64,000 nt of DNA from Pyrinomonadaceae bacterium (GTDB taxonomy: Bacteria > Acidobacteriota > Blastocatellia > Pyrinomonadales > Pyrinomonadaceae), in assembly GCA_050747225.1 (NCBI GenBank), contig JBOGOP010000003.1, forward strand, positions 7,893-71,892, in the 5' to 3' direction. The notes under the pieces are model-generated. The model made no database searches. It was not told the origin of the DNA and saw nothing but the letters and a program-made list of their open reading frames with translations. Shown here one piece after another: positions 21,441 to 44,763 of this stretch; the stretch's first letter is position 1; every line of letters starts with the position of its first letter. Both the position numbers and the translations under genes were made by a program.

Positions 21441-21704
21441 ATGGGTAAAGATGAGAAACTGCTGTCGGATCTTTTGCGCGGTAGATCGGATGCAAATATC
21501 GAGTTTGAAGACTTGTGCCAACTGCTCCGCAGTCTTGGCTTCGATGAGCGGATAAGCGGAAGCCATCACATCTTTCGCAGAACAGGGATTGAAGCAAGGA
21601 TTAACCTGCAGCGAGACAAAAGGAAGGCCAAGGTCTACCAGGTTCGGCAAGTGCGAGCCGTCATTGTTAAGCACGGACTAGCAGGAGAGAGTGACGATGC
21701 ATAA
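21441..21704 (+). CDS. hicA: HicA-family mRNA-interferase toxin
   Basis: About 87 aa. The pattern LLRSLGFDERISGSHHIFRR...VYQVRQVRAVIVKHGL is HicA/YcfA-like. Confidence 0.7.
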   Translation: MGKDEKLLSDLLRGRSDANIEFEDLCQLLRSLGFDERISGSHHIFRRTGIEARINLQRDKRKAKVYQVRQVRAVIVKHGLAGESDDA

Positions 21705-21909
21705 GTACGAAGTGATCATTTACTGGAGTAATGAAGATCAGGTTTTCGTCGCGGAAGTTCCCGAGCTCCCAGGTTGCATGGCGCACGGCGATACCAAGGC
21801 CGAAGCGCTGGCAAACGCCGATGAGGCGATTCAACTGTGGATCGACACCGCTCAAGAATTCGGCGATCCGATTCCTGAGCCAAAGGGTCAGCGACTGATG
21901 TTGGCCTAG
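21697..21909 (+). CDS. hicB: HicB-family antitoxin (short form)
   Basis: YEVIIYWSNEDQVFVAEVPELPGCMAHGDTKAEALANADEAIQLWI. The start overlaps the hicA stop, with AGGAGAGA upstream. Confidence 0.7.
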   Translation: MHKYEVIIYWSNEDQVFVAEVPELPGCMAHGDTKAEALANADEAIQLWIDTAQEFGDPIPEPKGQRLMLA

Positions 21910-21956
21910 CAGTCAATGAGCGAGGGTCGTGGCGGGAAAGTAGCTGTGCATTCGTT

Positions 21957-22292
21957 ATGAGCGTCTGGTATGCCTTCAAGTCTGGTGAATCGATTGGGCA
22001 GACAGGCTCCGAGAAGGGAAAGATTTTGCGTGACGACGAGCACAGGGACGGCGCTCGCGTTACCTTAGAGCGCGTCAGACACAATCGCTTCACGATCACA
22101 TGCGGGATTTATGGCTGGATGGTTCATACTCGATTCTTCAATTCTGAAGCCGCTGCGCAAATTGGATTCGATGAGACGAAAGATGAATTAAGCAAGATTC
22201 TCGGCTTGATACCGCTTGAAAGCGAAGCCGATGATGACAGACTAGAAGTTGCCAAGGTTGCGATCTCTGATTTCGTTGAACGAGGTGAATAG
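21957..22292 (+). CDS. Hypothetical protein (111 aa)
   Basis: Open frame with normal amino-acid composition. No motif recognised. Confidence 0.4.
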   Translation: MSVWYAFKSGESIGQTGSEKGKILRDDEHRDGARVTLERVRHNRFTITCGIYGWMVHTRFFNSEAAAQIGFDETKDELSKILGLIPLESEADDDRLEVAKVAISDFVERGE

Positions 22293-22362
22293 TTTGTGTC
22301 TTTGGATAAGATGAAGAGTAGGAAAGTGAAAACTGAGGCTGACGACGATCTTCAATGGCTAC

Positions 22363-22392
22363 GAGATGCCGCGCGTGGCCGTGCATTCGTGA
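22363..22392. repeat. Direct repeat B (orphan copy of the large-subunit 3' end)
   Basis: GAGATGCCGCGCGTGGCCGTGCATTCGTGA still encodes EMPRVAVHS-stop. An in-frame stop lies about 12 codons upstream, so it is not part of a gene. Confidence 0.9.
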
Positions 22393-22410
22393 TAAGGACT
22401 CAGCGTACGC

Positions 22411-22695
22411 ATGCAATTTGAATGGGATCCGAAAAAAGCAAAGAGCAATCTTCGCAAGCACCGTGTTTCATTCAGCGAGGCCATTATGGTTTTCAGTGAT
22501 GTTTTCTCATTCACTTACGATGATGCGGCAAACTCGCATGGCGAGCAAAGATACGTTACGCTTGGGATGTCCGCTCAAAGCCGCCGGGGTGTACTCGTAG
22601 TAGCGCATACCATGCAAGGCGAAAAAGTCAGGCTAATAAGCGCGCGAAAGGCTACACCGCGCGAAAGAAGAGCATATGAAGAAGAAAACAAATAG
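22411..22695 (+). CDS. brnT: BrnT-family (DUF497) toxin
   Basis: MQFEWDPKKAKSNLRKHRVSFSEA...VLVVAHT...RLISARKATPRERRAYEE. Confidence 0.85.
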   Translation: MQFEWDPKKAKSNLRKHRVSFSEAIMVFSDVFSFTYDDAANSHGEQRYVTLGMSAQSRRGVLVVAHTMQGEKVRLISARKATPRERRAYEEENK

Positions 22696-22960
22696 AGCCG
22701 AAGGCGAAGAGGACATGTTGCCAGAGTATGACTTCAGCAAGATGAAGCTCGTCGGGCGTGGAATCTATGCCAAACGGTTTCGTGCGGGCACGAACATTGT
22801 ATTGTTGGATCGTGACGTCCGAAAAGCTTTCCCTGATGACGAATCGGTGAATGAAGCGCTGCGTGTAATCGCCAAGCTGGCAAAACAGCAGGCCTCGCGC
22901 GCCCGAAAGCCTCAGCGGCGGAGCGCGAAACAGGCACCGAAGTCGCGACGGGCAGCATAA
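22676..22960 (+). CDS. brnA: BrnA-like antitoxin
   Basis: Overlaps the brnT stop. It carries the EYDFSKMK..GRGIYAKRF motif typical of BrnT partners. An alternative ATG is at 22715. Confidence 0.6.
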   Translation: MKKKTNRAEGEEDMLPEYDFSKMKLVGRGIYAKRFRAGTNIVLLDRDVRKAFPDDESVNEALRVIAKLAKQQASRARKPQRRSAKQAPKSRRAA

Positions 22961-23075
22961 GCCCGATGAGCAAACAAGAACCCTCGACCTATAGACCTTT
23001 TGTCTTCACTGTAATTGAAGACGATGGGGTGAACGTCGAAATAGAAGGCTACTCCCGGACACCGACGATCCCATC

Positions 23076-23609
23076 TTGAAAGCGAAAACCATCAATGTTG
23101 GAGCGTTCCTAGACGAGGGCCTTAGGCTTTTCAGAGAGCGGGGCATGGTTAGTTGCTGGCAGATGAACGCCTGTGAATCGGCGGGGATGTGGACTCAGTA
23201 CGGAAAGAACACCGACGCAATATGCATTCAAAGTACATACTCAACGTTTAGAGCGTGTCTTGATGGGGCGATCCACGACGCGTTAGCAAAGTGCGGTGAG
23301 ACCACGATTCATACGGGATTGGTGGATTATGGCTATGACCCCCCAAGCGATCATTGGAAAGCTGCTATGTACAAACGTAAAGAGTATGCACAAGAGCAAG
23401 AGATGCGCGCGCTTGTCTGTAATTATAACGAAGTACCCGAAGTCGGCATGTACATCAAAGTTGATCTTGACCTACTAGTGGACGTCATTTATGTAGCTCC
23501 GAATTCAAACCCTTGGTTCATATTTCTGGTAAAGCAGGTCATCAACAGGTACGGCTTGCCTAACAAGCCGGTTGAACGCTCAGCATTGGAAGAAAAGCCC
23601 TATTTCTGA
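23076..23609 (+). CDS. DUF2971-like protein, possibly 5'-truncated or frameshifted
   Basis: TTG start. The CWQMNACESAGMWTQYGKNTDAICIQ motif resembles DUF2971. A 37-codon ORF (22966-23079) in another frame abuts the start. Confidence 0.4.
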   Translation: MKAKTINVGAFLDEGLRLFRERGMVSCWQMNACESAGMWTQYGKNTDAICIQSTYSTFRACLDGAIHDALAKCGETTIHTGLVDYGYDPPSDHWKAAMYKRKEYAQEQEMRALVCNYNEVPEVGMYIKVDLDLLVDVIYVAPNSNPWFIFLVKQVINRYGLPNKPVERSALEEKPYF

Positions 23610-23624
23610 TTTCGTGACAAGCTT

Positions 23625-24614
23625 ATGATGCGACTGCCCAAATTTGACTACCGCGTCCCGCGAGAGATCGCGGAGGCGGTGAAGATCATCGCCGGCGCAG
23701 GACCGGAAGGGCAGTTCGTTGCCGGCGGCACCGATCTCTATCCAAACATGAAGCGCCGTCAACAGACGCCGCGCACTGTCATTTCCGTGATGCGCCTGCC
23801 GGAATTGAATCAGATAACAGGCGACGGCAAGTCAGGCATTCGCATCGGCGCGTCCGTTACCCTCACTGACATCGTCGAGCATCCACTAATCAACCGCGAC
23901 TATCCGGTCATCGCTCACGCAGCGCGCTCAATCTCCACGCCCATCCTGCGCAACATGGGCACCATCGGCGGAAATCTTTTATTGGATACGCGCTGCAACT
24001 ACTACGATCAGAACTACGAATGGCGCAAAGGCATAAATTTCTGTTTGAAAAAAGACGGCGACGTTTGTTGGGTTGCACCCGGGAGCTCGAAGTGTTGGGC
24101 GGTGCAGTCATCGGATCTGGTACCGGTAATGGTGGCGATCGGCGCCAGGTTTCGTTTGGCGTCAACGCTGGGCGAGCGAATGATCGACGCCGCGGGGTTC
24201 TACAACGACGACGGCATTGACTATCTGAAGAAGCGGCCGGACGAGTTGCTGGTCGACATTCATTTGCCGCCGCTCAATGGCTGGCGTGCGTCTTATCAAA
24301 AACTTCGCCGCCGTGGCGCGTTTGACTTTCCCGTTCTTGGGGTTGCTGCCTGGGTGCAAGTTGACCATGCGGGTTCGGTCAAGGATGCGAGACTGATCCT
24401 TGGAGGTATCGCGCCATCGCCCGTCGAAGTGAAGGAAGCCGGCGAAGCTTTGCTGGGCGAACCACTCGACGACGATCATATACAGGCCGCCGCTGAAGCC
24501 GCTTACATCAAGGCACGCCCGCTCGACAACACCGACTTCGTCATGAACTGGCGCAAACAGATGACGCGGCAATACACGCTTCGCGCTCTTCAGGAACTGG
24601 TTGCTTCGGAGTAG
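23625..24614 (+). CDS. FAD-binding medium subunit with a 4-Cys insertion (HcrB-like)
   Basis: FAD-binding PCMH-type blocks (AGGTDLYPNMK, GTIGGNL). A Cys-X15-Cys-X7-Cys-X8-Cys insertion spans residues 124-157. Confidence 0.85.
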   Translation: MMRLPKFDYRVPREIAEAVKIIAGAGPEGQFVAGGTDLYPNMKRRQQTPRTVISVMRLPELNQITGDGKSGIRIGASVTLTDIVEHPLINRDYPVIAHAARSISTPILRNMGTIGGNLLLDTRCNYYDQNYEWRKGINFCLKKDGDVCWVAPGSSKCWAVQSSDLVPVMVAIGARFRLASTLGERMIDAAGFYNDDGIDYLKKRPDELLVDIHLPPLNGWRASYQKLRRRGAFDFPVLGVAAWVQVDHAGSVKDARLILGGIAPSPVEVKEAGEALLGEPLDDDHIQAAAEAAYIKARPLDNTDFVMNWRKQMTRQYTLRALQELVASE

Positions 24615-26564: not shown

Positions 26565-27359
26565 ATGTTCACTCCGAATAGTTTCCGATTCGAAACCAGC
26601 GCGTCCGGTGTGGCGACGATCACGCTGAACCGGCCCGAACGCCTCAATGCGTTAACTTTCGAAGTCTATCGCGAACTGACTGATACCTTCGCAGCACTAA
26701 GAAATGAACCTGATGTACGCACGGTAGTGATCACAGGCGCAGGCCGAGCGTTCTGCTCCGGCGGCGATGTGCACGACATCATTGGCGAGCTCTTCAAACG
26801 CGATATGGAAGGCTTGCTCGAGTTTACCCGGATGACCTGTGAACTCGTCACTAACATCAGGGCGCTGCGCAAACCGGTTATCGCGAGTCTTAACGGAACA
26901 ACCGCCGGCGCGGGAGCCTGCATCGCGCTGGCTTCGGACATTCGCATTGCAGCCGAGGAAGCGAAGATTGCCTTTCTGTTTGTGAAGGTGGGGCTCTCAG
27001 GCGCCGACATGGGCGCGGCGTATTTGCTGCCGCGTGTGGTTGGCCTCGCTAAAGCGACGGAACTGCTCTACACCGGCGACTTCATTTCTGCGCAAGAGGC
27101 CGAACGCATAGGCTTGTACAATCGCGTAGTCCCTAACGATCGACTGGCAGCGACGACGCAGGAACTTGCGGAACGACTGGCGCATGGTCCGGCGTTCGCG
27201 CTTGCCAAAACCAAAGAGATGCTCGATCGCGAAGCGCACATGAATTTCGAAACGGCGTTGGAATGCGAGGCGCAGGCCCAGGCTATCTGCATGCAACATC
27301 CCGATTATCGCGAAGCGTATGAAGCGTTTGTTAATAAACGAGAAGCTAATTTCAAGTGA
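26565..27359 (+). CDS. Enoyl-CoA hydratase/isomerase family protein
   Basis: Crotonase blocks ITLNRPERLNAL, ITGAGRAFCSGGD and GTTAGAGACIALASD. Confidence 0.9.
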   Translation: MFTPNSFRFETSASGVATITLNRPERLNALTFEVYRELTDTFAALRNEPDVRTVVITGAGRAFCSGGDVHDIIGELFKRDMEGLLEFTRMTCELVTNIRALRKPVIASLNGTTAGAGACIALASDIRIAAEEAKIAFLFVKVGLSGADMGAAYLLPRVVGLAKATELLYTGDFISAQEAERIGLYNRVVPNDRLAATTQELAERLAHGPAFALAKTKEMLDREAHMNFETALECEAQAQAICMQHPDYREAYEAFVNKREANFK

Positions 27360-27487: not shown

Positions 27488-28639
27488 ATGAACAAATTCA
27501 TAGACCAACTTCCCTTCTTCACGCCTGAGCATCGCACGCTGGCTGCGGACATGGAGTCGTTTGTACAGCTGGAGATTGAGCCGCGAGCAATTGAAGAGCG
27601 CGATCTGGATGCTCAACTGCGCGAATTCGTCGGCGTGCTCGCGAAGGCAGGCGCGTTGCAATACTCTGTTGCCTTGCCTGACACCAAACTAGACGTCCGC
27701 GCTCTGTGTCTAGTTCGCGAAGCGCTATCGTACTCCTCCGCGCTGGCTGACCTCGCTTTCGTCATGCAGGGGTTGGGCACCTTTGCTATCAGCCAGGCCG
27801 CACCGGAACACCTGCGCGATTTCTGGGTTACCCGCGCGGTCGAGGGAAAAGCGGTTGCCGCGTTTGCCTTGACCGAACCCGAAGCCGGCTCCGACGTGGC
27901 TGCAATCAAGACTACCGCCACGCGCGATGGCGATGCTTACGTGATCAATGGCCGGAAGCGTTTTATCTCCAACGCCGGTGTCGCCGATTTCTACACAGTG
28001 TTTGCGCGAACCGGAACCGACGCGAACGGACGGGCTTCTTTATCCGCGTTTGTGGTCGGCGCAAAGATGCCCGGTTTCAGTGTAATTGAGCGAACCGCGA
28101 TGATCTCTGCGCACCCGATTGGTGAAATTGAATTCAACGGTTGCCGCGTGCCGGCGGAAGATATGGTTGGGGGTGAAGGCGATGGCTTCGTCCTGGCCAT
28201 GCGCACTATGGACACTTTTCGCGCCAGCGTTGGCGCCGCCGCCTGTGGCATGGCGCGGCGGGCACTCGATGAAGCGCTGCGTTATGCGGTTACCCGCAGA
28301 CAATTCGGCCGTCTACTAGCTGAGCATCAACTGATCCAGGAGAAGTTGGCAGACATGGTCACCGAACTCGAGGCCGCCAGACTTCTCGTTTATCGCGCCG
28401 CGCATTTGAAAGATACGGGGACTGGCCGCGTTACTCGCGAGGCGAGCGAGGCAAAACTTTACGCCACCGAGGCGGCCTGCCGCATTATTGATCAGGCGGT
28501 GCAGATTCATGGTGGCTCGGGCCTCGTGCGTGGCAGTGTCGTTGAGAGACTCTATCGAGACGTTCGCGCGCTGCGTATTTACGAAGGAACATCTGAGATA
28601 CAGAAGCTAATCATCGCGAGCCAGCTATTGAAGGAATAG
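27488..28639 (+). CDS. Acyl-CoA dehydrogenase
   Basis: Motifs ALTEPEAGSD, KRFISNAG, QIHGGSG and YEGTSEIQ. Confidence 0.9.
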   Translation: MNKFIDQLPFFTPEHRTLAADMESFVQLEIEPRAIEERDLDAQLREFVGVLAKAGALQYSVALPDTKLDVRALCLVREALSYSSALADLAFVMQGLGTFAISQAAPEHLRDFWVTRAVEGKAVAAFALTEPEAGSDVAAIKTTATRDGDAYVINGRKRFISNAGVADFYTVFARTGTDANGRASLSAFVVGAKMPGFSVIERTAMISAHPIGEIEFNGCRVPAEDMVGGEGDGFVLAMRTMDTFRASVGAAACGMARRALDEALRYAVTRRQFGRLLAEHQLIQEKLADMVTELEAARLLVYRAAHLKDTGTGRVTREASEAKLYATEAACRIIDQAVQIHGGSGLVRGSVVERLYRDVRALRIYEGTSEIQKLIIASQLLKE

Positions 28640-28747: not shown

Positions 28748-29878
28748 ATGAAAATCAACATCATCGGCGGCGGGCCGGCAGGAATGTACTTCGCCATCCT
28801 GATGAAGAAGGCGGACCCCGCGCATGAGATCACGGTTTACGAACGCAATGGGCCGGACGATACGTTTGGCTGGGGCGTGGTCTTTTCCGGAAAAACATTA
28901 GCAAACCTCCGCGCCGCAGATGAAGAGTCACATGCCGAGATAACGCGGGCGTTTGCCGCCTGGGACAATGTTGATGTCGTTCATGGACAGGAAAAGATTT
29001 CGATCCACGGCAATAGCTTTTCCGGCATCGCTCGTCTCCAGCTTCTCAAAATCCTGCAACGACGCTGCGAACAACTCGGCGTTCAGCTGCTTTTCCGGAC
29101 TGAAGTCCCTGATCTTGATTCACTGCGGCCAAACAGCGACTTGCTCGTAGCCGCAGACGGAGTCAACAGCACCGCGCGAAAACAATACTCAAAACATTTC
29201 CTTCCCACATTGGATGTTCGTCCGAATCGTTACATCTGGTATGGCACCAATCGGTTGTTTCATGGCCTGACGTTGACCTTTCGCGAAAACGAGGCCGGGG
29301 TATTTGCCGCCCACTCGTACAAATTCAACCAGACCACCAGCACGTTCATCGTCGAATGCGATCAAGAAGCCTGGCAGACAGCGGATTTTTCCTCGATGCC
29401 CGATGACGAGACGCAAGCGTACCTGGAAGGAGTGTTCGCACCGGATCTGGACGGCCAACCGTTGCTGTCAAACAATTCCAAGTGGATTAACTTTCTCCTG
29501 GTGAAAAACGACAAATGGTTTTTTGAGAATGTGGTAATGATTGGCGACGCGCTCCACACGGCGCACTTCTCCATTGGGTCAGGCACCAAGTTGGCATTGG
29601 AAGATGCCATCGCGCTCTTTGATTGTTTTCAAAAGAACGGAACGGTCTTCGACGCGCTGAGGGAATTCGAGTCAACGCGCAAACCGGTAATCGAGGAGTA
29701 TCAAGCGGCGGCATTTGAAAGCATGTGCTGGTTTGAGAATGCGCGAGAATATATGCATCTGAGCCCAATCGAACTTGCTTACACGCTAATGACGAGAAGT
29801 GGGCGAGTTGATAAAAGCGCGCTCCGACATCGGGATCCGGAGTTTGTTGCCGTATACGACGCTGCGAAAAGATCCTAG
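28748..29878 (+). CDS. FAD-dependent monooxygenase resembling the N-terminal half of 2-aminobenzoyl-CoA monooxygenase/reductase (salicylyl-CoA 5-hydroxylase type)
   Basis: IIGGGPAGMYFA...ERNGPDDTFGWGVVFSGKTL...FSGIARLQLLKILQ...ADGVNS...IGDALHTAHFSIGSGTKLALEDA. Confidence 0.75.
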   Translation: MKINIIGGGPAGMYFAILMKKADPAHEITVYERNGPDDTFGWGVVFSGKTLANLRAADEESHAEITRAFAAWDNVDVVHGQEKISIHGNSFSGIARLQLLKILQRRCEQLGVQLLFRTEVPDLDSLRPNSDLLVAADGVNSTARKQYSKHFLPTLDVRPNRYIWYGTNRLFHGLTLTFRENEAGVFAAHSYKFNQTTSTFIVECDQEAWQTADFSSMPDDETQAYLEGVFAPDLDGQPLLSNNSKWINFLLVKNDKWFFENVVMIGDALHTAHFSIGSGTKLALEDAIALFDCFQKNGTVFDALREFESTRKPVIEEYQAAAFESMCWFENAREYMHLSPIELAYTLMTRSGRVDKSALRHRDPEFVAVYDAAKRS

Positions 29879-31347
29879 CCCTTCCATTCAGGCGCGAGTA
29901 ATCGTCGTCGCCCTTCATCAACGGTCGCAATTCTCGGCTCGTCCAGCTCAAAACGATCCCAAAGCTTGCAGGTGACCGGACGATGCGCCTGATCAAGCGC
30001 TTCACAATAGTTGGTGTAGGTGCAGCGCCGTACCTCATCACCGCGTCCGAGTTTCACCTTAATAAACCAGTCCGGATCGGCAAGCGCCTGGCGAGCGAAG
30101 CCGGCGATGTCGGCCTGTCCCTGCGCCAGAATCGTTTCGGCTTGTGCGAAAGTAGTAATACCTCCGGCACCGACGATCGGTGTATCGAGCCGCGCTTCGT
30201 TCACTGCTCGTTTGATTGCGGCAACCAACGGAACGTTGCGACCAAATGGCCCGGCAGCATCAGAAAGAACTGTCGGCATACATTCGTAACCGCTCTGACC
30301 AGTGTAGGGATAGACTGCCTGACCAACTTTCGGCTGCTGCGCGTCTTCAAATTTTCCACCCTTTGAAAGCGAGAGAAAATCAAAACCTGCACGAGCAAAC
30401 TCAACGCCGAAATAGATCGCATCTTCAACTCGGTTGCCGCCCGCGATTACTTCATCCGCTAAAAACCGCGTGCCGACAACATAATCTTTACCCACCGTTC
30501 TTCTCACAGCCTGAAAAACTTCCAGAGGCAGCCGCAGGCGATTCTCGCGCGAGCCTCCATAACCGTCATCGCGATCATTAACGGCACTGAGAAAGCCGGC
30601 CATCGTGTAGGCGTGAGCGTAATGCAGCTCGACGCCGTCAAATCCCGCCTCGCGCGCGCGACCAGCCGCCGCTGCAAAAATGTTCGGCAATACCTGCGGC
30701 AATTCGCAGACATGTGGCAGATGCATATCGGTCACGTGCTCGCGATAACCAAAACGAAGCGATTCCAACTCACGCTCGTCGAGTATGTTATCGACAACTT
30801 CATCCGGCGCATTGTTAAGAAACGCGCGCACCTTTGCTTCGTCTGCATCCAGCCACGCTGCTTCTTCAGTAATCTCCGCGAGTGCCTTTCGATGACGATC
30901 TTTGACTTGCAGGAAGCGGGCGAAGTACTTCTCTTTTTCGGGACGGCGCTTTACAGACAGGAAGTCGATGATCTGGATGAACAGTTTGGTCTCGCCGCCG
31001 CTCGCCTCCTTCACGGTTTCCACCAGCTGCTTAAGCCCGGGGATGAACCGATCATGGCCAATGCGCAGCAAAGGTCCGCTGGGAATGTCACGCACTCCGG
31101 TCGCCTCAACAACCAAAACCCCAGGTCGCCCCTGAGCGAAACGTCGATACCAATCAAGGTTCTCAGGCGTGACGAAACCGTCTTCCGTGGCGCGCCAGGG
31201 AACCATCGCCGGCACCCAGGTGCGGCTGGTGGCTTGTAACGATCCAATGTTGATCGGTTGGTAAAGAAGAGACTGTGCTGCTTCCCTGGCTGTGGGCCAG
31301 CGCGTTGCGGGAATTGAGTGGCGGATTGGATTGGCAAACTTCCACAT
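29875..31347 (-). CDS. Old-yellow-enzyme-family NADH:flavin oxidoreductase
   Basis: 490 aa. TIM-barrel OYE blocks (GVLVVEATGV, GFDGVELHYAHAYTMAGFLS, NRLRLPLEV). Its stop overlaps the convergent monooxygenase stop within CTAG. Confidence 0.8.
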   Translation of the reverse strand: MWKFANPIRHSIPATRWPTAREAAQSLLYQPINIGSLQATSRTWVPAMVPWRATEDGFVTPENLDWYRRFAQGRPGVLVVEATGVRDIPSGPLLRIGHDRFIPGLKQLVETVKEASGGETKLFIQIIDFLSVKRRPEKEKYFARFLQVKDRHRKALAEITEEAAWLDADEAKVRAFLNNAPDEVVDNILDERELESLRFGYREHVTDMHLPHVCELPQVLPNIFAAAAGRAREAGFDGVELHYAHAYTMAGFLSAVNDRDDGYGGSRENRLRLPLEVFQAVRRTVGKDYVVGTRFLADEVIAGGNRVEDAIYFGVEFARAGFDFLSLSKGGKFEDAQQPKVGQAVYPYTGQSGYECMPTVLSDAAGPFGRNVPLVAAIKRAVNEARLDTPIVGAGGITTFAQAETILAQGQADIAGFARQALADPDWFIKVKLGRGDEVRRCTYTNYCEALDQAHRPVTCKLWDRFELDEPRIATVDEGRRRLLAPEWKG

Positions 31348-31433
31348 ATGTTCGCGTTCACTTTATCACGGAGCCTGCGGTTGCTGGGCGAATGCGACGA
31401 CAGCGATAGTGACGTGATTTGAGCTTGACACGC

Positions 31434-31513
31434 CGGGGCAGTAGCCCGACTGTTAAGGAGGGTTCTAACGTTTTCAATTCAAGGCCCTCCTTAACAGTCG
31501 GGCTACTGCCCCG
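31434..31513. repeat. Perfect 29-bp inverted repeat (22-nt loop)
   Basis: CGGGGCAGTAGCCCGACTGTTAAGGAGGG (31434-31462) pairs with its exact reverse complement at 31485-31513. It lies in a divergent intergenic region. Confidence 0.95.
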
Positions 31514-31635
31514 ACGATGCAAGCTTATAGGTCGCAGCAAGCCTCGGGATCAAACGCCCTGGAAGCAAACGAGAAAGATCGTCGAGTGTTATGGTAAATT
31601 AAACCTACCTCAAGAAATTTCCGGGGAGAGCCGCT

Positions 31636-32823
31636 TTGACTGATGAGCTTCTGAAATGGCGCAGTGAGTTTCCTATTCTGGACAAGACTGTTTACCTGAT
31701 TTCCCACAGTCTTGGTGCGATGCCCAGGGAGACTTACGCGCGTTTAAACGATTACGCCGAAACCTGGGCAACGCGTGGGGTGCGCGCCTGGGCCGAAGGC
31801 TGGTGGGACATGCCGGTCACGGTCGGCAATGAAGTGGCCGGCATTATTGGCGCTGAGCCCGGCAACATCGTGATGCATCAGAACGTTTCGATCTGCCAGT
31901 CGCTGATTCTTTCCTGTTTCGAGCCCAATCCGAAAAGAAACAAGATAGTCTATTCAGAACTGAATTTCCCTTCGGTCATGTACGTCTATGAGGCGAATGC
32001 GCGCGAAGGCAAACTGAGAATTGAAACGGTCCCGTCTGACGACGGCATCACAATTCCACTCGAACGTTTTCTCGCCGCAATTGACGAGGAGACGTTACTG
32101 GTGCCTTTCTCTCACGTGCTATTCAAGAGTGGTTTCCTGCAAAACGCCAAAGCGATTACCGAGCGCGCGCACGAAGTAGGGGCGCTGGTTGTGCTCGACA
32201 CTTATCAGTCTGCCGGCACGGTTCCCTTCAGCGTGAAGGAACTCGATGTTGATTTCGCCACTGGCGGCTCGGTGAAATGGCTCTGTGGTGGACCGGGAGC
32301 GGGATATCTCTACGTGCGTCCCGATCTGCAGGCGCAACTCCAACCAAAGACGACCGGCTGGATGGCGCATGAGTCGCCTTTTGCTTTCGACACCGAGCTG
32401 CGTTACGCAGCGGGCATCGGGCGGTTTCTCCACGGCTCGCCTGCTATTCCGGCGCTCTATGCCGCGCAGTCGGGTTATCGAATAATTAATGAAATTGGCG
32501 TAGACAACATTCGCGCCAAGAGCACGCGCCAAACGGAGCGCTTGATTGAGCTGGCCGAAGAAGCAGGATTTAGAGTGACGAGTCCAAAGGATGCCGCGCA
32601 ACGAGGCGGGACGATTACCGTCGGCCATGAGGATGCGGCGGCGATCACCAGCGAACTGATTCGGCGTGAGTTTATCGTCGATTATCGCCCCGGCGCCGGC
32701 GTGCGCATCTCACCCCATTTTTATACGAGTGATGAAGAAATCGAACTCGTAGTTCGCGAAATGAAAGAAATTAGAGACACCCGCGCGTATGCTGTTCACG
32801 AAACCGCGGGGGCAGCATTCTGA
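31636..32823 (+). CDS. kynU: Kynureninase
   Basis: TTG start. Class-V aminotransferase-like fold with FPILDKTVYLISHSLGAMP, VLDTYQSAG and GGSVKWLCGGPGAGYL (PLP-lysine region). Confidence 0.85.
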   Translation: MTDELLKWRSEFPILDKTVYLISHSLGAMPRETYARLNDYAETWATRGVRAWAEGWWDMPVTVGNEVAGIIGAEPGNIVMHQNVSICQSLILSCFEPNPKRNKIVYSELNFPSVMYVYEANAREGKLRIETVPSDDGITIPLERFLAAIDEETLLVPFSHVLFKSGFLQNAKAITERAHEVGALVVLDTYQSAGTVPFSVKELDVDFATGGSVKWLCGGPGAGYLYVRPDLQAQLQPKTTGWMAHESPFAFDTELRYAAGIGRFLHGSPAIPALYAAQSGYRIINEIGVDNIRAKSTRQTERLIELAEEAGFRVTSPKDAAQRGGTITVGHEDAAAITSELIRREFIVDYRPGAGVRISPHFYTSDEEIELVVREMKEIRDTRAYAVHETAGAAF

Positions 32824-32835
32824 AAAGAATGGGTT

Positions 32836-32988
32836 TTGTACTTTGTTCTTAGAACTTTGGTTCTCCTGGTCTTTGGACTTTGGTCTTAGTGCTTGACCAT
32901 AGCTATGAAATTGATGCTAAAGTCCGAAGATCAAAGACCTAAGTCCAAAGACCTAAGACCAGCCAAGCTCAAAGCGCCAAGTACCAAG
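32836..32988. repeat. Heptamer-periodic inverted repeat (ACTTTGT + GGTCTTT/GGACTTT units)
   Basis: Left arm about 32836-32893 and right arm about 32920-32988. Confidence 0.8.
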
Positions 32989-32992
32989 ATCA

Positions 32993-34246
32993 ATGACTAA
33001 AAACTACGGCAGCAACGCTCCGCTTTCCTACAATAAATACCTGCGTGTGCCCGACTTGATTGGCCTGCAGGACTGCCTGTCTGATCCGCAACATCACGAC
33101 GAGTTGCTATTCATAACCATCCATCAGGCGTATGAACTTTGGTTCAAACAGATTCTCCATGAAATCGATGCGGCCATCGAATTGATGAATGAAGACCGGC
33201 TGGCGGCCGCCGCGCGCACATTTCGACGCGTAGTTGAAATAGAGAAACTGCTGGTAAACCAGATTCACCTTCTGGAAACCATGACGCCTATCAACTTTCT
33301 CGGGTTTAGAGATCAACTCAATCCGGCCAGCGGCTTTCAGTCAATGCAGTTTCGTGAGATCGAGTTTGTCTCCGGACAAAAACACCAGAGCTTGTTGAAC
33401 GAATTTAGCGAGGATGAATTCGCGCGGTCGCGCATGCAAAAGCGTTTTGAGGCGCCGACGCTGGGAGACGCATTTTATGCCGCATTGCGTAAGCGTGGCC
33501 TGGATGCGCCGGCTAGTGACGATTCCAGCGGCGATCAAGAGCGCCGGAAGCGTTACGGACAACGGACCCAGGCTGTGCTTGAAATTCTCACGCACTTTGA
33601 GGAGCGCTTCGAAGAGTTTCAACTGGCAGAAGCTTTATTGGAACACGATGAGTATTTCGCTCTATGGCGTTCGCATCACATCAAGATGGTTGAGCGCATG
33701 GTCGGCACGAAGCGCGGTACCGGCGGCTCGGAAGGTGTCGGGTACTTGCAGACCACTCTCGACAAAAAGTTTTTCCCTGAACTCTGGGAAGCGCGCACGC
33801 ATCTGGACACAAAACACGGCGAGGCTGGTTGTCCGTTTGCCGGCGAGGGTGTCCGACGCGAGGAGGCTGCACCTGCCGAGCCCGAAAAAATCAAAAAGGC
33901 GCCGCCTAAGCCGGTCATCAAAAGCAAACGAATAGCTACAAACGAACGCAGGCGGGAGCCTCGCGCGAAAGTGAATCTTCGCGCACGTTGGGAAGGCGAC
34001 CTGGGTATGCATGAGGCAGAAGTAACCAGCCTAAGCAAGAGCGGTTGCTTTGTGCTCAGTGGCGGCAAGGTCAAGGCAAAGGAACTGATACGTCTGGAAC
34101 TCATGCTTCCCAATGACGAGTCGATCCATCTTTGGGCTGAGGTAGTTGAGGAGGCAGATGAGATCGGGTTTGCCCTGCAATTCACTTCTTCGGAGGAAGC
34201 GTACCAGGCGCGCCTCGAGCAGTTCCTCCAAAAATGTCTAATCTAG
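32993..34246 (+). CDS. kynA: Tryptophan 2,3-dioxygenase fused to a C-terminal PilZ domain
   Basis: Residues 1 to about 285 carry TDO blocks (YNKYLRVPDL, HDELLFITIHQAYELWFKQ, FRDQLNPASGFQS, SHHIKMVERMVGTKRGTGGS). A Pro/Lys-rich linker follows. Residues from about 318 to 417 form the PilZ domain (RRREPR ... SLSKSG ... IGFALQF). Confidence 0.85.
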   Translation: MTKNYGSNAPLSYNKYLRVPDLIGLQDCLSDPQHHDELLFITIHQAYELWFKQILHEIDAAIELMNEDRLAAAARTFRRVVEIEKLLVNQIHLLETMTPINFLGFRDQLNPASGFQSMQFREIEFVSGQKHQSLLNEFSEDEFARSRMQKRFEAPTLGDAFYAALRKRGLDAPASDDSSGDQERRKRYGQRTQAVLEILTHFEERFEEFQLAEALLEHDEYFALWRSHHIKMVERMVGTKRGTGGSEGVGYLQTTLDKKFFPELWEARTHLDTKHGEAGCPFAGEGVRREEAAPAEPEKIKKAPPKPVIKSKRIATNERRREPRAKVNLRARWEGDLGMHEAEVTSLSKSGCFVLSGGKVKAKELIRLELMLPNDESIHLWAEVVEEADEIGFALQFTSSEEAYQARLEQFLQKCLI

Positions 34247-34369
34247 TCGTTCGGAGTCTTCGATGAACTTTGAGTATGCCAGGCATGACCTCGTTCACTA
34301 ACCGGAGTGCCCAGGGAACAAGAGGCCCGGTATGGAATCTAAAGCGATAGGTTCACAGGAGGAATTGTC

Positions 34370-35452
34370 ATGCAAAAGCGAATTCTGGGCGCGTCAATTG
34401 TGGTTGTTCTGCTGGCCCTGGCGGTTGCTGGACAAAAACTTGAGCCTCCTAAGCTCGAGCCCAAACCCTCCACTGCCAGCCAGAAGCAGATGATCGATGA
34501 GGGCGTTGCCCTCCACGACCGTGGTGATTACGACGCCGCCATCCGTCTTTATGAACAAGTCTTGCGTGAGAATCCCGCCAACGTGGAGGCTCTCTATGAG
34601 ATGGCCTTCACTTACTACCTGAAGCAGGACTGTGTGAAAAGCCTGGAGATGGCCTATAAGGCTGCGCAGTACAAATCCAATCTCCTCGGCGAAGTCTATG
34701 GACAAATTGGCAACTGCCAGGACGATTTGGGCAACCCGAAGGCGGCGGTAGAGACCTACAAAGCGGGCATCAAGCTAATGCCTGCGAGTTTTCTCTTGCA
34801 CTACAACCTTGGCCTCACCTATGCGCGGTTAAGCCAGATCGAGGACGCGCGAATCGAAGTCAAGAAATCGGCTTCGCTAAATCCCAATCACGCCAGTAGC
34901 CACAATCTGATGAGCATAGCTTTCGATAGAGGCGGTTACAAAACACCCGCATTGTTGGCAGCTTGCCGTTTTCTGATTCTTGAACCAAAGTCGAACCGAT
35001 CTGAGACGGCGCTAACCCTGGTGCAAAAGATAATGCAGGCAGGCGCTTCTCAAAAGGACGCCAATACGATCACTGTGCTCATGGATCCGTCCCCGAAAAA
35101 AGATGAGGGCGATTTCGGTTCCATCGAACTGGTCCTGGGCCTACTCAGAGCAGGAAACCTCACCGAGAACAAGAAGGACAAGAGCGAAATGGAGTTGCTG
35201 GTTGATAATTTCGGAACGTTGTTCAGCATCCTTTCTGAGCAGTCAGGGAAATCAGATCGCGCGAAGTTTACCTGGACGTATTACGTGCCTTACTTTGCAG
35301 AGTTGAAGAAACAGGGCCACACCGAGGCTTTTGCTTACTACATCAATCAACGAAGCTCGATCAGCGGGGTCGACAAGTGGCTGGAACAGCATCAAAGCAA
35401 AGTCGCCGACTTTCTCAACTGGTCGAAAGGTTATCAGTGGCCCGGGATCTGA
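34370..35452 (+). CDS. Secreted TPR-repeat protein
   Basis: Signal peptide. Several TPR-like repeats (GDYDAAIRLYEQVLRENPANVEALYEMAFTY and others). Confidence 0.7.
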   Translation: MQKRILGASIVVVLLALAVAGQKLEPPKLEPKPSTASQKQMIDEGVALHDRGDYDAAIRLYEQVLRENPANVEALYEMAFTYYLKQDCVKSLEMAYKAAQYKSNLLGEVYGQIGNCQDDLGNPKAAVETYKAGIKLMPASFLLHYNLGLTYARLSQIEDARIEVKKSASLNPNHASSHNLMSIAFDRGGYKTPALLAACRFLILEPKSNRSETALTLVQKIMQAGASQKDANTITVLMDPSPKKDEGDFGSIELVLGLLRAGNLTENKKDKSEMELLVDNFGTLFSILSEQSGKSDRAKFTWTYYVPYFAELKKQGHTEAFAYYINQRSSISGVDKWLEQHQSKVADFLNWSKGYQWPGI

Positions 35453-35474
35453 TTCTGCCAACCAGCTCGCTGTC

Positions 35475-37082
35475 GTGAACATCACCTTCCCAGATCGCTT
35501 CAACATGGCCGACTACTTCCTCTACCACAACCTGGAGGAAGGGCGCGAAAACAAAGTTTGCCTGTACTTCCAGGATCAAACGTTCACCTATGGCGAGACC
35601 GCGGGAATGTCGAATCGCGTTGGCAACGCGCTGCGCGAATTGGGAGTCGAGATCGAAGACCGCGTACTCATCGTCCTGCCGGACTGTCCTGAGTTTGTCT
35701 GGACCTGGTTTGGTGCTGCTCGGATTGGCGCCGTCATTACGATGGTGAATCCGCTCCTGCCCGCTGAAGATTACAAATACTATCTGGACTACACCCGCGC
35801 GCGCGTCGCCATCGTTCATGAGTCCCTTCTGAGTACTTTCAATGCGGCGGCGGCAAACGCGCATTATCTAAGAGCGGTGCTGGTAGTTGGAGATCACGAA
35901 CACGTTGACGCCGTTGACTTCACCAAAGATTCTTTGGTTTGGAGTTCTTTCGGCGGCGCAGTTCTGACTGCCAGCGACGAGTGTAGCCGCGCCGACACGC
36001 GTCGGGACGACATCGCCATTTGGTTGTTCACTTCGGGTTCGACAGGACATCCGAAGGGCGCCGTGCATCTGCAACACGATTTGCCATTCAACACCGAAGT
36101 CTTTGCAAAACAGACAATGGGTGTGAATGAAAACGATTTGACTGTTTCGGTGCCCAAGCTCTTTTTTGGTTATGCGACGGGAACGAATCTGTTGTTCCCT
36201 TTCGCCGTCGGCGGCGCTACGGCGCTTTTTTCAGAACGCTCAACGCCTGAAAAACTGTTCGACGTGATCGAGCGGTATCGTCCCACCATTCTTACTACCG
36301 TGCCGACGATGATCAACTCGATGCTGAATGCGCCCGACGCCGGCAATCGCAATTTATCGAGCCTGCGCTTCTGCTATTCGGCGGGCGAGGCCTTGCCGCC
36401 GGAGCTTTACGAGCGATGGAAGAAGAGTTTGAGTGTGGAGATTTGCGACGGCATCGGATCGGCAGAGATGTTTCATATTTACATTACAAACCGGCCAGGC
36501 GATGTGAAGCCCGGGAGCCTGGGGAAGATCGTTCCGGGTTATGAAGCGAAGATTGTGGACGCTGCCGGTAATGAAGTTGCGCCGAATGAAATGGGCACAT
36601 TGAGAATCAAAGGCGACTCGGCCGCGCTTTGCTATTGGAACGCTCATGAGAAATCAAAGGAGACTTTTGCCGCCGACTGGTGCACCACCGGAGATCAATT
36701 TCACGTTGACGATGAAGGCTATTATTGGTATCACGGCCGCACGGACGACATGTTGAAGGTGTCAGGCATCTTCGTGGCGCCCGCAGAAATTGAGAACTGC
36801 CTGCTGCAACATGAGGCGGTACTGGAGTGCGCGGTAATCGGGAACGATGCGGGTGACGGTCTCGTCAAACCTAAGGCCTACGTGGTGTTGCGCGAGGAAC
36901 ACAAAGGCAGAGCCCTGAGCGATTCAGATCTGAATTCTCAAGCGAGCCTGATTGCAGAATTGCAGGGATTCGTTAAGTCTCAACTCGCTCCCTACAAGTA
37001 TCCTCGGTGGATCGAATTCGTACCTTCGCTTCCCAAGAACGATCGCGGCAAGATCGATCGCAAACTGCTGAAACGAAGCTAG
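35475..37082 (+). CDS. Benzoate-CoA ligase family enzyme (candidate 2-aminobenzoate/benzoate-CoA ligase)
   Basis: ORF 35331.. trimmed to the GTG at 35475, downstream of the TPR gene stop (alternative ATG at 35505). AMP-binding motif TSGSTGHPKG. The N-terminal INITFPDRFNMADYF resembles benzoate-CoA ligases. Confidence 0.82.
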   Translation: MNITFPDRFNMADYFLYHNLEEGRENKVCLYFQDQTFTYGETAGMSNRVGNALRELGVEIEDRVLIVLPDCPEFVWTWFGAARIGAVITMVNPLLPAEDYKYYLDYTRARVAIVHESLLSTFNAAAANAHYLRAVLVVGDHEHVDAVDFTKDSLVWSSFGGAVLTASDECSRADTRRDDIAIWLFTSGSTGHPKGAVHLQHDLPFNTEVFAKQTMGVNENDLTVSVPKLFFGYATGTNLLFPFAVGGATALFSERSTPEKLFDVIERYRPTILTTVPTMINSMLNAPDAGNRNLSSLRFCYSAGEALPPELYERWKKSLSVEICDGIGSAEMFHIYITNRPGDVKPGSLGKIVPGYEAKIVDAAGNEVAPNEMGTLRIKGDSAALCYWNAHEKSKETFAADWCTTGDQFHVDDEGYYWYHGRTDDMLKVSGIFVAPAEIENCLLQHEAVLECAVIGNDAGDGLVKPKAYVVLREEHKGRALSDSDLNSQASLIAELQGFVKSQLAPYKYPRWIEFVPSLPKNDRGKIDRKLLKRS

Positions 37083-42777: not shown

Positions 42778-44763
42778 TTAGTTGACGCAAGTCAGGGCTT
42801 CGTCGTGCCCGGCTGGCATCGGCTTGTCGCTCTTGAAGCTGTTAGCACTGCCTGTCTGTCCCAGCTTTGATATTCTGTCGAGTTTGTGACCCGACTTGGC
42901 GCGGTACATAGCCTGGTCAGCGGCTACGAGCAGCTGATCCAGCGTTTCGCCATCAGCACCATAAGTCGAGGTGCCGACGCTGATTCCCACCCGTGCCTTG
43001 GCCCCACCGCGAACATGAAGCGAGAACTCTGAAACAGCGGTTTCGATGCGTTGCTTTAGGTCTTCAACCTGGTTCTCGCCCAATTCCTGCACAATGGCAA
43101 CAAACTCATCGCCGGCGTAACGGGCAAGAAAATCGTACTCGCGAAGTTGCGCCTGAATGATTCGCGCCATTTCGCGCAGCATCTTATCGCCAACTTTATG
43201 TCCAAATGAATCGTTCACGATTTTGAAGTCGTCCAGGTCAAGCATAACAACCTGAAAAGGCCGCGCGTTGCGTCTCGCCCGCGCAGCTTCTTCATCAAAG
43301 CGCAAAGCCATATAGCGCGCGTTCGGCAGTCCGGTGAGTTGATCGGTAAGTGCATTCGACTCAGCTTCGGCGTGCTGCATAGAATTAGACAAGGCGTCGG
43401 AAGCCAACCTGGTAACCGTCTCCAACAAACGCATGTGGTCTTCAGTGTAGTGCTGCAGCTCCGTCGAATAGACGGAAATTGCGCCCAGGATCATGTCGTC
43501 CTTAAACAAGGGCAGCGATGCCATCGAGCGGTATTCGTGTTCGATTTCAAGGCCAGCCAAGTCGAGACTGGGATGGAGTTGATTGATGGGACTGCGGTTC
43601 GCGAGAGCGAATCCAGTTACGCCTTCGCCCAGTGCAACACACTTGGTGGCCATGACCTGAGCGTTCTGTCCGGCAACGTGAGCGGGTGTGGCAAAGCCTT
43701 TCACCTCATCGTAAAGATAAACCACGCATGTTTGAAACGGGACCACGTGTCCTACTTTGTCAACCAGAACTTCCACCGTGTTGCGCACGCTCAGCGAGGA
43801 ACCGAACGTACGTGCTATTTCATATAGCGCATAAACCTCCTGATGAGCGCTCTTGATCTGGTCGTAAGCCAGATAAGCACCGCGCTCACGACTCTGGGTC
43901 ATGTCGACGTCAGGCAACACCAACGGTTCCGAGCCGTCGCTCGGCGGCAGTTGCTGCGGGAGACCAGCAGCTGCAATTTCCGACTCGAAGCGCGAAAGAT
44001 TTTTGATAAACGAGTCCACTACGGCTGGATCGAATTGACTTGCTGACCCGCGCAAAAGAAACGCTACCGCCTCATCACGCGTCATGCCCCGACGGAAAGG
44101 ACGATCCTCCCTAACTGAGTCAAAACAATCTACCACCGACATGATGCGGGCTGTGAGGGGAATCTGTTCCGCCTTCAGACCATCCGGATAGCCAAGTCCA
44201 TTCCAGTGCTCATGATGGTGACGCACGATTGGTAGTACCGGATAAGGAAACTCAACGCGCCTGAGAATTTCTGCGCCGACGGTCGTATGGATTTTCATTT
44301 TTTCAAACTCGGCCGGCGTTAGGCGGCCAGGTTTGTTAACGATGTGCGCAGGCACGGCAAGCTTTCCAATGTCGTGAAGTAACGCCCCGGCCTTTAGCGC
44401 CGCAATTTCAGCTTCTGAAAGCCCCAGCACTTGGCCCAACCCGGCGGCGTAGATTTGCACGCGCCGCACGTGGCAATGCGTAGTCTGATCGTTAGCGTCG
44501 ATGGCCGTCGCCAAAGCCTCGGCAGTCGCGAAATGTAAGCGACTTAGCTCTTCGCTCTCGCAAATCTTGGCAGTAAGACGTGACCTGATAATATGAATCA
44601 CGTGCGCGACGGCAACTGTCGCAATGCTCAGGACCGCCAGGGAGTAAGCTTGATTTGTGCTCCAGGCAACAATGAAAGCCACACCGGCAAAAAGAAATAG
44701 CCGGTAGTGGCTAAATGAAATAATTCGGCCCCTGATGTAATCCGCCGCGTTGAGCAGGCTCAT
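42778..44763 (-). CDS. Membrane-anchored HD-GYP / GAF / GGDEF(AGDEF) c-di-GMP turnover protein
   Basis: Two N-terminal TM segments. HDIGK...HHEHWNGLGYPDGL is the HD-GYP domain. A GAF-like middle domain follows. The C-terminal REYDFLARYAGDEF carries the RxxD I-site plus an AGDEF A-site. Confidence 0.85.
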   Translation of the reverse strand: MSLLNAADYIRGRIISFSHYRLFLFAGVAFIVAWSTNQAYSLAVLSIATVAVAHVIHIIRSRLTAKICESEELSRLHFATAEALATAIDANDQTTHCHVRRVQIYAAGLGQVLGLSEAEIAALKAGALLHDIGKLAVPAHIVNKPGRLTPAEFEKMKIHTTVGAEILRRVEFPYPVLPIVRHHHEHWNGLGYPDGLKAEQIPLTARIMSVVDCFDSVREDRPFRRGMTRDEAVAFLLRGSASQFDPAVVDSFIKNLSRFESEIAAAGLPQQLPPSDGSEPLVLPDVDMTQSRERGAYLAYDQIKSAHQEVYALYEIARTFGSSLSVRNTVEVLVDKVGHVVPFQTCVVYLYDEVKGFATPAHVAGQNAQVMATKCVALGEGVTGFALANRSPINQLHPSLDLAGLEIEHEYRSMASLPLFKDDMILGAISVYSTELQHYTEDHMRLLETVTRLASDALSNSMQHAEAESNALTDQLTGLPNARYMALRFDEEAARARRNARPFQVVMLDLDDFKIVNDSFGHKVGDKMLREMARIIQAQLREYDFLARYAGDEFVAIVQELGENQVEDLKQRIETAVSEFSLHVRGGAKARVGISVGTSTYGADGETLDQLLVAADQAMYRAKSGHKLDRISKLGQTGSANSFKSDKPMPAGHDEALTCVN

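Follow-up and report, generated by a model that had tools for sequence, protein, structure and literature searches.

How does an enzyme of amino-acid catabolism come to carry a receptor domain for a bacterial second messenger, and what might the messenger do there? The question is raised by one gene in a stretch of 64,000 nucleotides (hereafter the window) from a Pyrinomonadaceae bacterium of the phylum Acidobacteriota (GenBank assembly GCA_050747225.1, contig JBOGOP010000003.1, positions 7,893 to 71,892 of the forward strand). The gene lies at 32993..34246 on the plus strand, starts with ATG and encodes 417 amino acids plus a stop codon. Its product joins a tryptophan 2,3-dioxygenase (TDO, encoded by kynA) to a PilZ domain, as both Pfam models recognize, and its database label is only 'tryptophan 2,3-dioxygenase family protein'. 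PilZ domains bind c-di-GMP (cyclic dimeric guanosine monophosphate) and control the proteins to which they are fused, for example cellulose synthase. The best explanation of the locus, to which a probability of roughly 0.55 is given here, is that c-di-GMP acts on TDO through the PilZ module. The more specific proposal, in which c-di-GMP would directly control the first step of the kynurenine pathway by means of a dedicated PilZ, working in trans in most Pyrinomonadaceae and in cis in this bacterium, is tentative and falls a little short of even odds.

Domain architecture of the fusion protein

An earlier reading of the DNA from its letters and open reading frames (the original prediction) had proposed a full-length TDO core up to about residue 285, a Pro/Lys/Glu-rich linker and a PilZ domain in the last 100 or so residues, and had recommended a profile search with PF03301 and PF07238. 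All three parts have been recovered, and both domains exceed their curated cut-offs. In the 417-residue protein, PF03301 (Trp_dioxygenase) scores 208.2 bits (E 2.9e-61, cut-off 34.9), whereas PF07238 (PilZ) matches residues 318-413 with 38.8 bits in the whole protein and 43.2 bits in the isolated C-terminus (cut-off 22.5). The TDO domain was delimited to residues 1-283 (32993..33841, plus strand) with PF03301, an alignment to the Xanthomonas campestris enzyme (2NW7), Foldseek and AlphaFold2. The NCBIfam equivalog model for TDO, TIGR03036, is covered at positions 6-264 of 264 with 253.2 bits, below its cut-off of 390.7; the TDO part is thus a full-length but divergent match, whose equivalence of function the model does not certify. 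In a phmmer search of the PDB, the TDO part aligned with 2NW7 (E 4e-56) without large gaps, and its identity to bacterial TDOs is about 35-37% across the entire core of 265 residues. In the AlphaFold2 model of the full-length protein this part is all-helical, and Foldseek pairs it with the TDOs of X. campestris and Cupriavidus metallidurans at E about 1e-14 and target-normalised template modelling (TM) scores of 0.72-0.81.

The residues expected of a working TDO are also present. In the 2NW7 alignment, the proximal haem ligand is His229 (33677..33679, plus strand; X. campestris His240) and the distal histidine is His44 (33122..33124, plus strand; His55), both invariant in 60 homologues, while the substrate carboxylate would be held by the invariant Arg106 (33308..33310, plus strand; Arg117). 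Substrate-binding Thr243 corresponds to Thr254, and Tyr13, Tyr16 and Leu17 correspond to Tyr24, Tyr27 and Leu28, which complete the active site of the adjoining subunit. The sole difference among the active-site positions compared is Phe102 for Tyr113 of X. campestris. Judged by these residues, the TDO domain is complete and catalytically intact, and it is predicted to be active.

The PilZ domain comprises residues 318-417 (33944..34243, plus strand), as delimited with PF07238, AlphaFold2 and Foldseek. In the AlphaFold2 model, strands at residues 325-335, 338-347, 351-355, 365-371, 377-387 and 393-400 are followed by a helix at 402-416, so that the modelled fold is of the canonical class, with six beta-strands and then one C-terminal alpha-helix. 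A model of the domain alone, built from 44 sequences, has a predicted local distance difference test score (pLDDT) of 82.6. The fold search was needed to settle the PilZ fold because PDB searches by sequence gave nothing or a weak match: with the fusion protein as a single sequence, only TDO chains and no PilZ structure were retrieved, and the PilZ part used as a profile found PlzD/VCA0042 weakly (E 0.08), in an alignment that spans both ligand motifs. With Foldseek, the top PDB matches, about 40 in number, are without exception PilZ domains, and most of these were crystallised in complex with c-di-GMP; they include PlzD/VCA0042, BcsA, Alg44, PA0012, MotI, MapZ, YcgR and MrkH. On its score of 22.5-26.8 bits against TIGR02266, the model of the Myxococcus-type PilZ paralogue domain (cut-off 68.7), the PilZ domain falls outside that family of paralogues.

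Conservation and origin of the fusion

The original prediction had also called for a check of the junction for misassembly; the architecture is kept in 81 clusters of homologues and is thus not an artefact. These clusters, drawn from NCBI, JGI, ENA and Logan assemblies in a search of 5.8 billion proteins, carry both Pfam domains in 401-454 amino acids (all but one 415-454) and are 72-100% identical to the query. The identical protein has been recorded on two contigs, including one of the Pyrinomonadaceae metagenome-assembled genome (MAG) GCA_975253635.1; besides it, 80 of the 81 clusters have 72-92% identity with the same reading frame and architecture. Mean pairwise identity among the 81 fused homologues is 87% in TDO and 82% in PilZ against 34% in the linker, which indicates that both domains are under purifying selection and that the tether is free to vary.

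Ranking just below the fused proteins are TDO homologues with 84-89% identity in the enzyme part, which end at about 285 amino acids, right after ...GCPFAKE. The taxonomic range, which the original prediction had proposed to survey, was covered by scanning a single representative genome of each GTDB species with the profile for the fused-type PilZ subfamily. The scan gave 32 loci (related loci are designated here by L numbers), all of them in Acidobacteriota MAGs that bear the names Pyrinomonadaceae, Blastocatellia or 'Chloracidobacterium sp.'. Each of the 32 has a PilZ coding sequence immediately after kynA. Nine of these loci are fused (counting L012, which has a frameshift inside the TDO body), and in the 23 split ones kynA and pilZ are separated by spacers of 12-129 nucleotides or overlap shortly. 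Where the DNA reaches far enough, the conserved block consists of an Old-Yellow-Enzyme-type reductase on the opposite strand, kynureninase, TDO, PilZ and an aryl-CoA ligase. One of the TDO homologues that end at about 285 amino acids is encoded on the 1.2-Mb contig of L002; there, a PilZ gene of 133 codons begins 116 nucleotides past the TDO stop codon, and its product is 64% identical to the fused PilZ domain. The 22 PilZ orthologues extracted from split loci are single-domain proteins of 105-133 amino acids that start essentially at RRxxxR. By the same comparisons, the fused PilZ domain is an orthologue of the stand-alone pilZ gene.

In neighbour-joining trees, built either from TDO or from TDO, kynureninase and ligase together, the fused forms make one clade nested among the split forms, and this monophyly points to a single fusion event. 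The alignment of the junction DNA suggests how the event took place: where split genomes have TGA or TAA after ...TTC GCC AAA GAG, fused ones have a sense codon, the old spacer and the first pilZ codons are now translated as the linker, and the pilZ ATG has been lost. On the evidence of trees and alignment, the fusion came about when kynA lost its stop codon, which makes it a Rosetta-stone linkage of a PilZ adaptor to KynA. The kynA-pilZ adjacency in 32 of 32 loci, taken together with the single fusion, makes the case for functional coupling stronger.

That the fusion might result from misassembly or a frameshift, or be a read-through of the pseudogene kind, has a practically negligible probability. 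Some long-read MAGs are indeed frameshifted, in TDO in the case of L012 and in neighbouring genes in those of L004, L025 and L034; against an artefact, the 81 clusters from four sources are in frame, both domains are under purifying selection, and the fused clade is monophyletic and has lost both the kynA stop codon and the pilZ ATG. The frameshifts of L012, L004, L025 and L034 hit TDO, the Old-Yellow-Enzyme-type gene, kynureninase or ligase, where tblastn returned split segments in different frames, and are probably indel errors rather than signs of pseudogenes.

Searches with the PilZ part returned stand-alone proteins for the most part. The profile search gave 2,365 proteins at E <= 0.001, and the 120 best were all stand-alone, with 103-136 amino acids. 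A search of a representative library with the PilZ domain gave 277 matches, almost all of them stand-alone proteins of 100-150 amino acids, with no protein of TDO length among them, since the fused proteins are probably clustered there under TDO representatives. Two of its top matches, P0121 and P0226, were rejected as spurious low-complexity repeat proteins. The ten longer matches of the library comprise two such spurious repeats, one REC-PilZ protein, two proteins with two PilZ stretches and five with PilZ plus an unannotated extension; a fusion with an enzyme domain was absent from the ten.

Ligand-binding motifs of the PilZ domain

Both c-di-GMP motifs named in the original prediction, RxxxR as RREPR and a variant SLSKSG with Ser for Asp or Asn, were found again, with the numbering shifted by one residue. 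The RxxxR motif is R320-R-E-P-R324 (33950..33964, plus strand), which R319 extends to RRxxxR. It is kept in 81 of 81 fused homologues, and among all the fused and split members examined neither arginine varies. The second motif is S346-L-S-K-S-G351 (34028..34045, plus strand), a variant of the canonical [D/N]hSxxG that reads S-L-S-x-x-G in all fused homologues; the canonical pattern does not match the fused domain, in which h, S and G are kept and the first position is Ser in 81 of 81.

The split relatives indicate from where this variant came. The 22 orthologues from split loci all have RxxxR, and their second motif is D-h-S-x-x-G in 12, N-L-S in six and S-L-S in four. On the tree, Asp at the first residue (D-[IL]-S-x-x-G) is found in the deepest-branching split group, Asn in an intermediate group, and Ser in both the fused clade and the split group sister to it (L002, L008, L010 and L014); a single Ser, in L026, is independent. 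Of the 120 best orthologues that stand alone, 116 have Asp and four have Asn at this residue, and from the tree and these counts it follows that the PilZ family is ancestrally of the canonical c-di-GMP type. The Ser change, being common to the fused clade and its split sister group, is older than the fusion.

Characterised proteins bear on the possible consequence of such a change for binding. PA2989 of Pseudomonas aeruginosa has Ser for D/N with RxxxR intact and binds c-di-GMP, and the PilZ proteins that do not bind have lost RxxxR (Galperin and Chou, bioRxiv 10.1101/814665). The unchanged arginines and the kept h, S and G favour retained ligand binding in the fused clade, where binding is predicted.

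Linker and C-terminal tail of the dioxygenase

Between both domains lies the linker G284-N317 (33842..33943, plus strand), with the sequence GEGVRREEAAPAEPEKIKKAPPKPVIKSKRIATN. It corresponds to the former kynA stop codon, intergenic spacer and 5' end of pilZ. Its 34 residues are disordered and rich in Pro, Lys, Ala and Glu, in agreement with the composition first proposed; in the AlphaFold2 model of the whole protein, pLDDT is below 50 at residues 279-320. Across the 81 fused homologues the linker is 31-62 amino acids long and consists of 19% Pro, 15% Lys, 13% Ala and 10% Glu.

The TDO part ends in a clade-specific tail, H-G-E-A-G-C-P-F-A (residues 275-283; 33815..33841, plus strand), that holds a Cys-Pro-Phe motif. 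This tail, in the form H-G-x-x-G-C-P-F-A, closes every PilZ-linked TDO, whether split or fused, and neither the 60 fused and split TDOs compared nor any of the related loci show variation at H275, G279, C280, P281 and F282. In the 2NW7 alignment, the X. campestris TDO is without it. It is a candidate PilZ docking or haem-handling element. The Cys-Pro-Phe of the tail resembles a haem-regulatory (CP) motif and is positioned exactly at the fusion junction.

Proposed mechanism and alternative explanations

In the mechanism proposed here, KynA would have captured, by gene fusion, a small PilZ adaptor of the kind encoded just downstream in its relatives. The PilZ module would bind c-di-GMP by means of RxxxR and [D/N/S]-h-S-x-x-G, and the ligand would order the N-terminal RxxxR loop, directly continuous with the linker, so that the loop closes over the bound c-di-GMP as known from structures of PilZ complexes. 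The liganded PilZ might then dock on the TDO tetramer, with one PilZ per subunit, and the docking would alter catalysis, substrate access, haem loading or the stability of the tetramer. In this manner the entry step of tryptophan catabolism would be made dependent on the c-di-GMP state of the cell. In relatives with split genes, the two proteins would interact likewise but in trans, like MapZ with CheR1, and the fusion would fix a 1:1 stoichiometry and a high local concentration.

Several observations weigh against this mechanism or leave parts of it unsupported. Adjacency and fusion mark a functional association and do not tell which property of TDO is regulated; the long, disordered and non-conserved linker gives no hint of a docking mode; and the AlphaFold2 monomer, with a predicted TM score (pTM) of 0.54, does not place PilZ confidently on TDO. 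Given the Ser in place of the canonical D/N in the fused clade, the affinity for c-di-GMP could be reduced or lost. On the side of the pathway, the substrate identity of TDO and of the kynureninase encoded next to it is drawn from conserved residues, since TIGR03036 and the kynureninase equivalog model TIGR01814 both score below the NCBI cut-offs, and a kynurenine formamidase was not found among the open reading frames of the window that were scanned.

The Ser residue is also the starting point of a rival explanation, according to which the PilZ of the fused clade no longer binds c-di-GMP and is a constitutive structural or regulatory subunit of TDO, the fusion having been possible precisely because a reversible, signal-dependent association was no longer needed. 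It is consistent with this that Ser replaces D/N in every fused protein, that the change (D to N to S on the tree) predates the fusion, and that non-binding PilZ proteins with protein-protein roles have been documented (the eponymous PilZ, XC1028; 3dsg). The explanation is nevertheless unlikely: the invariance of the RxxxR arginines and of h, S and G would be hard to explain without a ligand, the documented non-binders lack RxxxR, and PA2989 binds c-di-GMP with the same change. Quite unlikely, too, is that PilZ uses c-di-GMP to organise the pathway, by recruitment, localisation or TDO turnover, rather than to gate catalysis, in which case it would recruit TDO to kynureninase, to the aryl-CoA ligase or to a cellular site and TDO would be merely a tethered subunit. 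In nearly all loci, PilZ has kynA on one side and the aryl-CoA ligase gene on the other and is thus equally adjacent to both, the long flexible linker suits a recruiting role, and single-domain PilZ adaptors do act by binding proteins, as in MapZ-CheR1 and HapZ-SagS. Yet the fusion that took place is with kynA, no ligase-PilZ fusion appears in the 32 loci or among the PilZ relatives listed, and spacers to kynA as short as 12-24 nucleotides suggest translational coupling with kynA.

A reversed flow of information can also be imagined, in a trigger-enzyme arrangement in which TDO senses tryptophan, oxygen or haem status and controls the tethered PilZ, either in its binding or sequestering of c-di-GMP or in its engagement of a target. 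TDO binds oxygen, haem and tryptophan and so might in principle serve to report on them, the junction with the linker carries the invariant Cys-Pro-Phe tail specific to the clade, and the direction of the flow is not fixed by the data. This arrangement is nonetheless highly improbable, since the retained catalytic residues and the catabolic operon setting are the mark of a working enzyme, an output partner is not apparent and, to our knowledge, all characterised PilZ domains are inputs. In a bolder variant of the proposal that PilZ directly controls the first step of the kynurenine pathway, the drift from D to N to S at the guanine-contacting residue, taken with the invariant Cys-Pro-Phe tail at the junction, could reflect a change of ligand or a sensing of the second messenger coupled to the haem loading of TDO.

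Genes surrounding the fusion

Two further genes of c-di-GMP signalling had been reported from the window, and both have been located again on the minus strand. The one at 42781-44763 encodes a protein of 661 amino acids with profile matches to HD-GYP (HD_5), GAF and GGDEF domains; its HD and GYP signatures (HD, HHExxxGxGYP) look intact, and its cyclase motif is AGDEF, not GGDEF. The other, at 48358-48804, encodes a stand-alone PilZ protein (31 bits) that is unrelated to the fused PilZ and has the canonical RRxxxR and DLSxxG motifs, as RRHSKR and DLSSNG. By these domain matches, genes of c-di-GMP turnover occur in the same genome as the fusion.

The immediate neighbourhood is catabolic. Upstream of the fusion lies a kynureninase-like gene dependent on pyridoxal phosphate (kynU, 31636..32823, plus strand; Aminotran_5 and KYNU_C), whose product reaches 152 bits with TIGR01814 (cut-off 246) and which is syntenic in every related locus where the DNA reaches upstream of kynA (29 of 32). 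Divergent from kynU, the gene at 29875..31347 on the minus strand encodes an Old-Yellow-Enzyme-type FMN oxidoreductase of 490 amino acids (PF00724, with a partial match to the C-terminal half of PRK08255), and it is syntenic in all related loci with DNA that far, 28 of the 32. It adjoins, on the plus strand at 28748..29878, a gene for a FAD monooxygenase (FAD_binding_3) that matches positions 1-382 of the 768 of NF006101 (PRK08255) with 475 bits, which is the N-terminal half of this bifunctional aroyl-CoA hydroxylase/oxidoreductase model. Two more genes of the plus strand code for an enoyl-CoA hydratase (26565..27359; ECH_1, and NF006107 or PRK08258 with 394 bits over a cut-off of 330) and an acyl-CoA dehydrogenase (27488..28639; N, M and C domains of Acyl-CoA_dh, all NCBIfam matches being below cut-off), and the same order of both is found in L002.

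Downstream of the fusion, an aryl-CoA ligase of the benzoate-CoA ligase family is encoded at 35331..37082 on the plus strand (TIGR02262, 536 bits, cut-off 375). Its gene follows PilZ directly in 31 of the 32 related loci and in L002, and after a gap of about 440 nucleotides in L013. In the window, a gene for a tetratricopeptide-repeat protein with a signal-peptide-like N-terminus (34370..35452, plus strand) is placed between kynA-pilZ and the ligase; it has no counterpart in any related locus and was therefore judged an unrelated insertion in this genome. The listed TTG start of the ligase overlaps the 3' end of this gene, so that translation of the ligase probably begins some 45 codons further on. 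Taken together, the enzymes of the cluster most likely fit a route from tryptophan through kynurenine and anthranilate to 2-aminobenzoyl-CoA, followed by ring hydroxylation and reduction and by steps like those of beta-oxidation, and TDO is most likely its entry step. Aerobic hybrid routes by way of aroyl-CoA (2-aminobenzoyl-CoA or salicylyl-CoA) have been described in Azoarcus and Streptomyces.

The spacer between kynU and kynA (32824..32992) holds two inverted arrays of 7-nucleotide repeats, TGGTCTT/TGGACTT and then the inverse AAGACCT/AAGTCCA, which pair as a 29-nucleotide inverted repeat, 83% complementary, with a 39-nucleotide loop. The same architecture with other heptamers is seen in L003-L007, L009, L011, L012, L014, L021 and L029, for example GGATGAA/CATCCTT, GGTCAGT/ACTGACC and (GTTGTCA)x9 with TGATAAC, and in the deepest-branching genomes kynU and kynA nearly abut. 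The repeat could be a lineage-specific hairpin, a terminator or a processing element, or else belong to a repeat class typical of these genomes. A promoter and terminator scan of 31300-35600 found no sigma-70-like promoter, and terminator-like matches were at chance level. The split loci L015-L018 and L026 have an extra insert of about 600 nucleotides between kynureninase and TDO, of which about 260 nucleotides per locus read open (MKQFLES...LNW...W(S)(I/M)AQCLDHL...). A molybdenum hydroxylase set (17698-24614), a few kilobases upstream of the tryptophan cluster, consists of a 2Fe-2S subunit (17698-18225), a molybdenum cofactor subunit of 818 amino acids (18383-20839) and a FAD subunit (23625-24614), and a MobA-like gene follows at 24623; a link of this set to N-heteroaromatic or kynurenine-derived substrates would be speculative.

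Comparison with known systems

The characterised outputs of c-di-GMP are mostly motility, adhesion, exopolysaccharide and development, and the partners of PilZ so far comprise flagellar motors, polysaccharide synthases, chemotaxis and two-component proteins, and transcription factors (2025 c-di-GMP effector review). No paper pairing PilZ or c-di-GMP with tryptophan 2,3-dioxygenase was found in full-text literature searches, in keeping with the original prediction, which was aware of no characterised fusion of this type; neither tryptophan nor a dioxygenase is mentioned in the PilZ census (Galperin and Chou, bioRxiv 10.1101/814665) or in the 2025 review. Among the matches listed for 'PilZ' together with kynurenine, the co-occurrences were discarded as human or clinical papers in which 'Pilz' is apparently a surname. 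If the proposed mechanism is true, this would be the first PilZ receptor to regulate a haem dioxygenase and a route of amino-acid catabolism, and the reach of c-di-GMP would extend to the post-translational control of aromatic amino-acid catabolism. The setting is the Acidobacteriota, a phylum abundant in soil in which signalling has hardly been studied, and the reach of the finding is limited by its narrow taxonomic range. The fused and split forms are a natural Rosetta stone that names the partners and supplies a series of D-, N- and S-type motifs, and the soluble enzyme has a simple spectrophotometric assay (N-formylkynurenine, 321 nm), which makes the hypothesis testable with two recombinant proteins.

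As an enzyme, the TDO part is comparable to the bacterial KynA proteins of X. campestris (2NW7-2NW9) and C. metallidurans (2NOX), with which it shares the haem-ligand and substrate residues, the fold and a kynureninase neighbour; it differs in the added HGxxGCPFA tail and PilZ extension and in Phe102 for Tyr113. The control of bacterial kynA known to us is transcriptional (for example by KynR in P. aeruginosa) and not exerted through a receptor domain for a second messenger. The gene context is reminiscent of the PRK08255-type pathway, in that an enzyme of the benzoate-CoA ligase family, a FAD monooxygenase, an Old-Yellow-Enzyme-type reductase, an enoyl-CoA hydratase and an acyl-CoA dehydrogenase adjoin the fusion; here, the monooxygenase and the reductase are separate genes on opposite strands and their specificity is predicted. 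This likeness bears on the gene context only and not on the fusion.

Coupling of PilZ with enzymes is itself known from BcsA, Alg44 and MapZ-CheR1, so that the novelty lies in the partner, a haem dioxygenase, and in the phylum. In BcsA and Alg44, PilZ is part of, or attached to, polysaccharide synthases and gates their catalysis on c-di-GMP. The fusion shares with them a PilZ in cis with an enzyme, the canonical fold and an RxxxR at the N-terminal hinge of the domain. In contrast, the PilZ of BcsA packs rigidly on the glycosyltransferase and controls a gating loop, whereas here a disordered linker of 31-62 amino acids intervenes, and the partner is a soluble tetrameric catabolic enzyme rather than a membrane machine for exopolysaccharide. 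For the motif variant, the only precedent found is PA2989, a tetramer-forming PilZ protein (tPilZ) of P. aeruginosa that likewise combines RxxxR with the Ser variant; this tPilZ has two extra helices, while the fused PilZ has the canonical six strands plus one helix. Finally, the system most similar in its proposed logic is MapZ (PA4608) of P. aeruginosa, a PilZ adaptor of one domain that, when loaded with c-di-GMP, binds the enzyme CheR1 and inhibits it. The split orthologues are also single-domain PilZ proteins, of 105-133 amino acids starting at RRxxxR, the modelled fold superposes on MapZ with TM scores of 0.77-0.78 (5xly, 5y4r), and a c-di-GMP-loaded PilZ is likewise proposed here to dock on a soluble enzyme. 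With only about 15% sequence identity to MapZ and with the interaction predicted, the fusion differs from that system in that its target is a haem dioxygenase of amino-acid catabolism instead of a chemotaxis methyltransferase, and in that the adaptor has become covalently fused to its presumed target.

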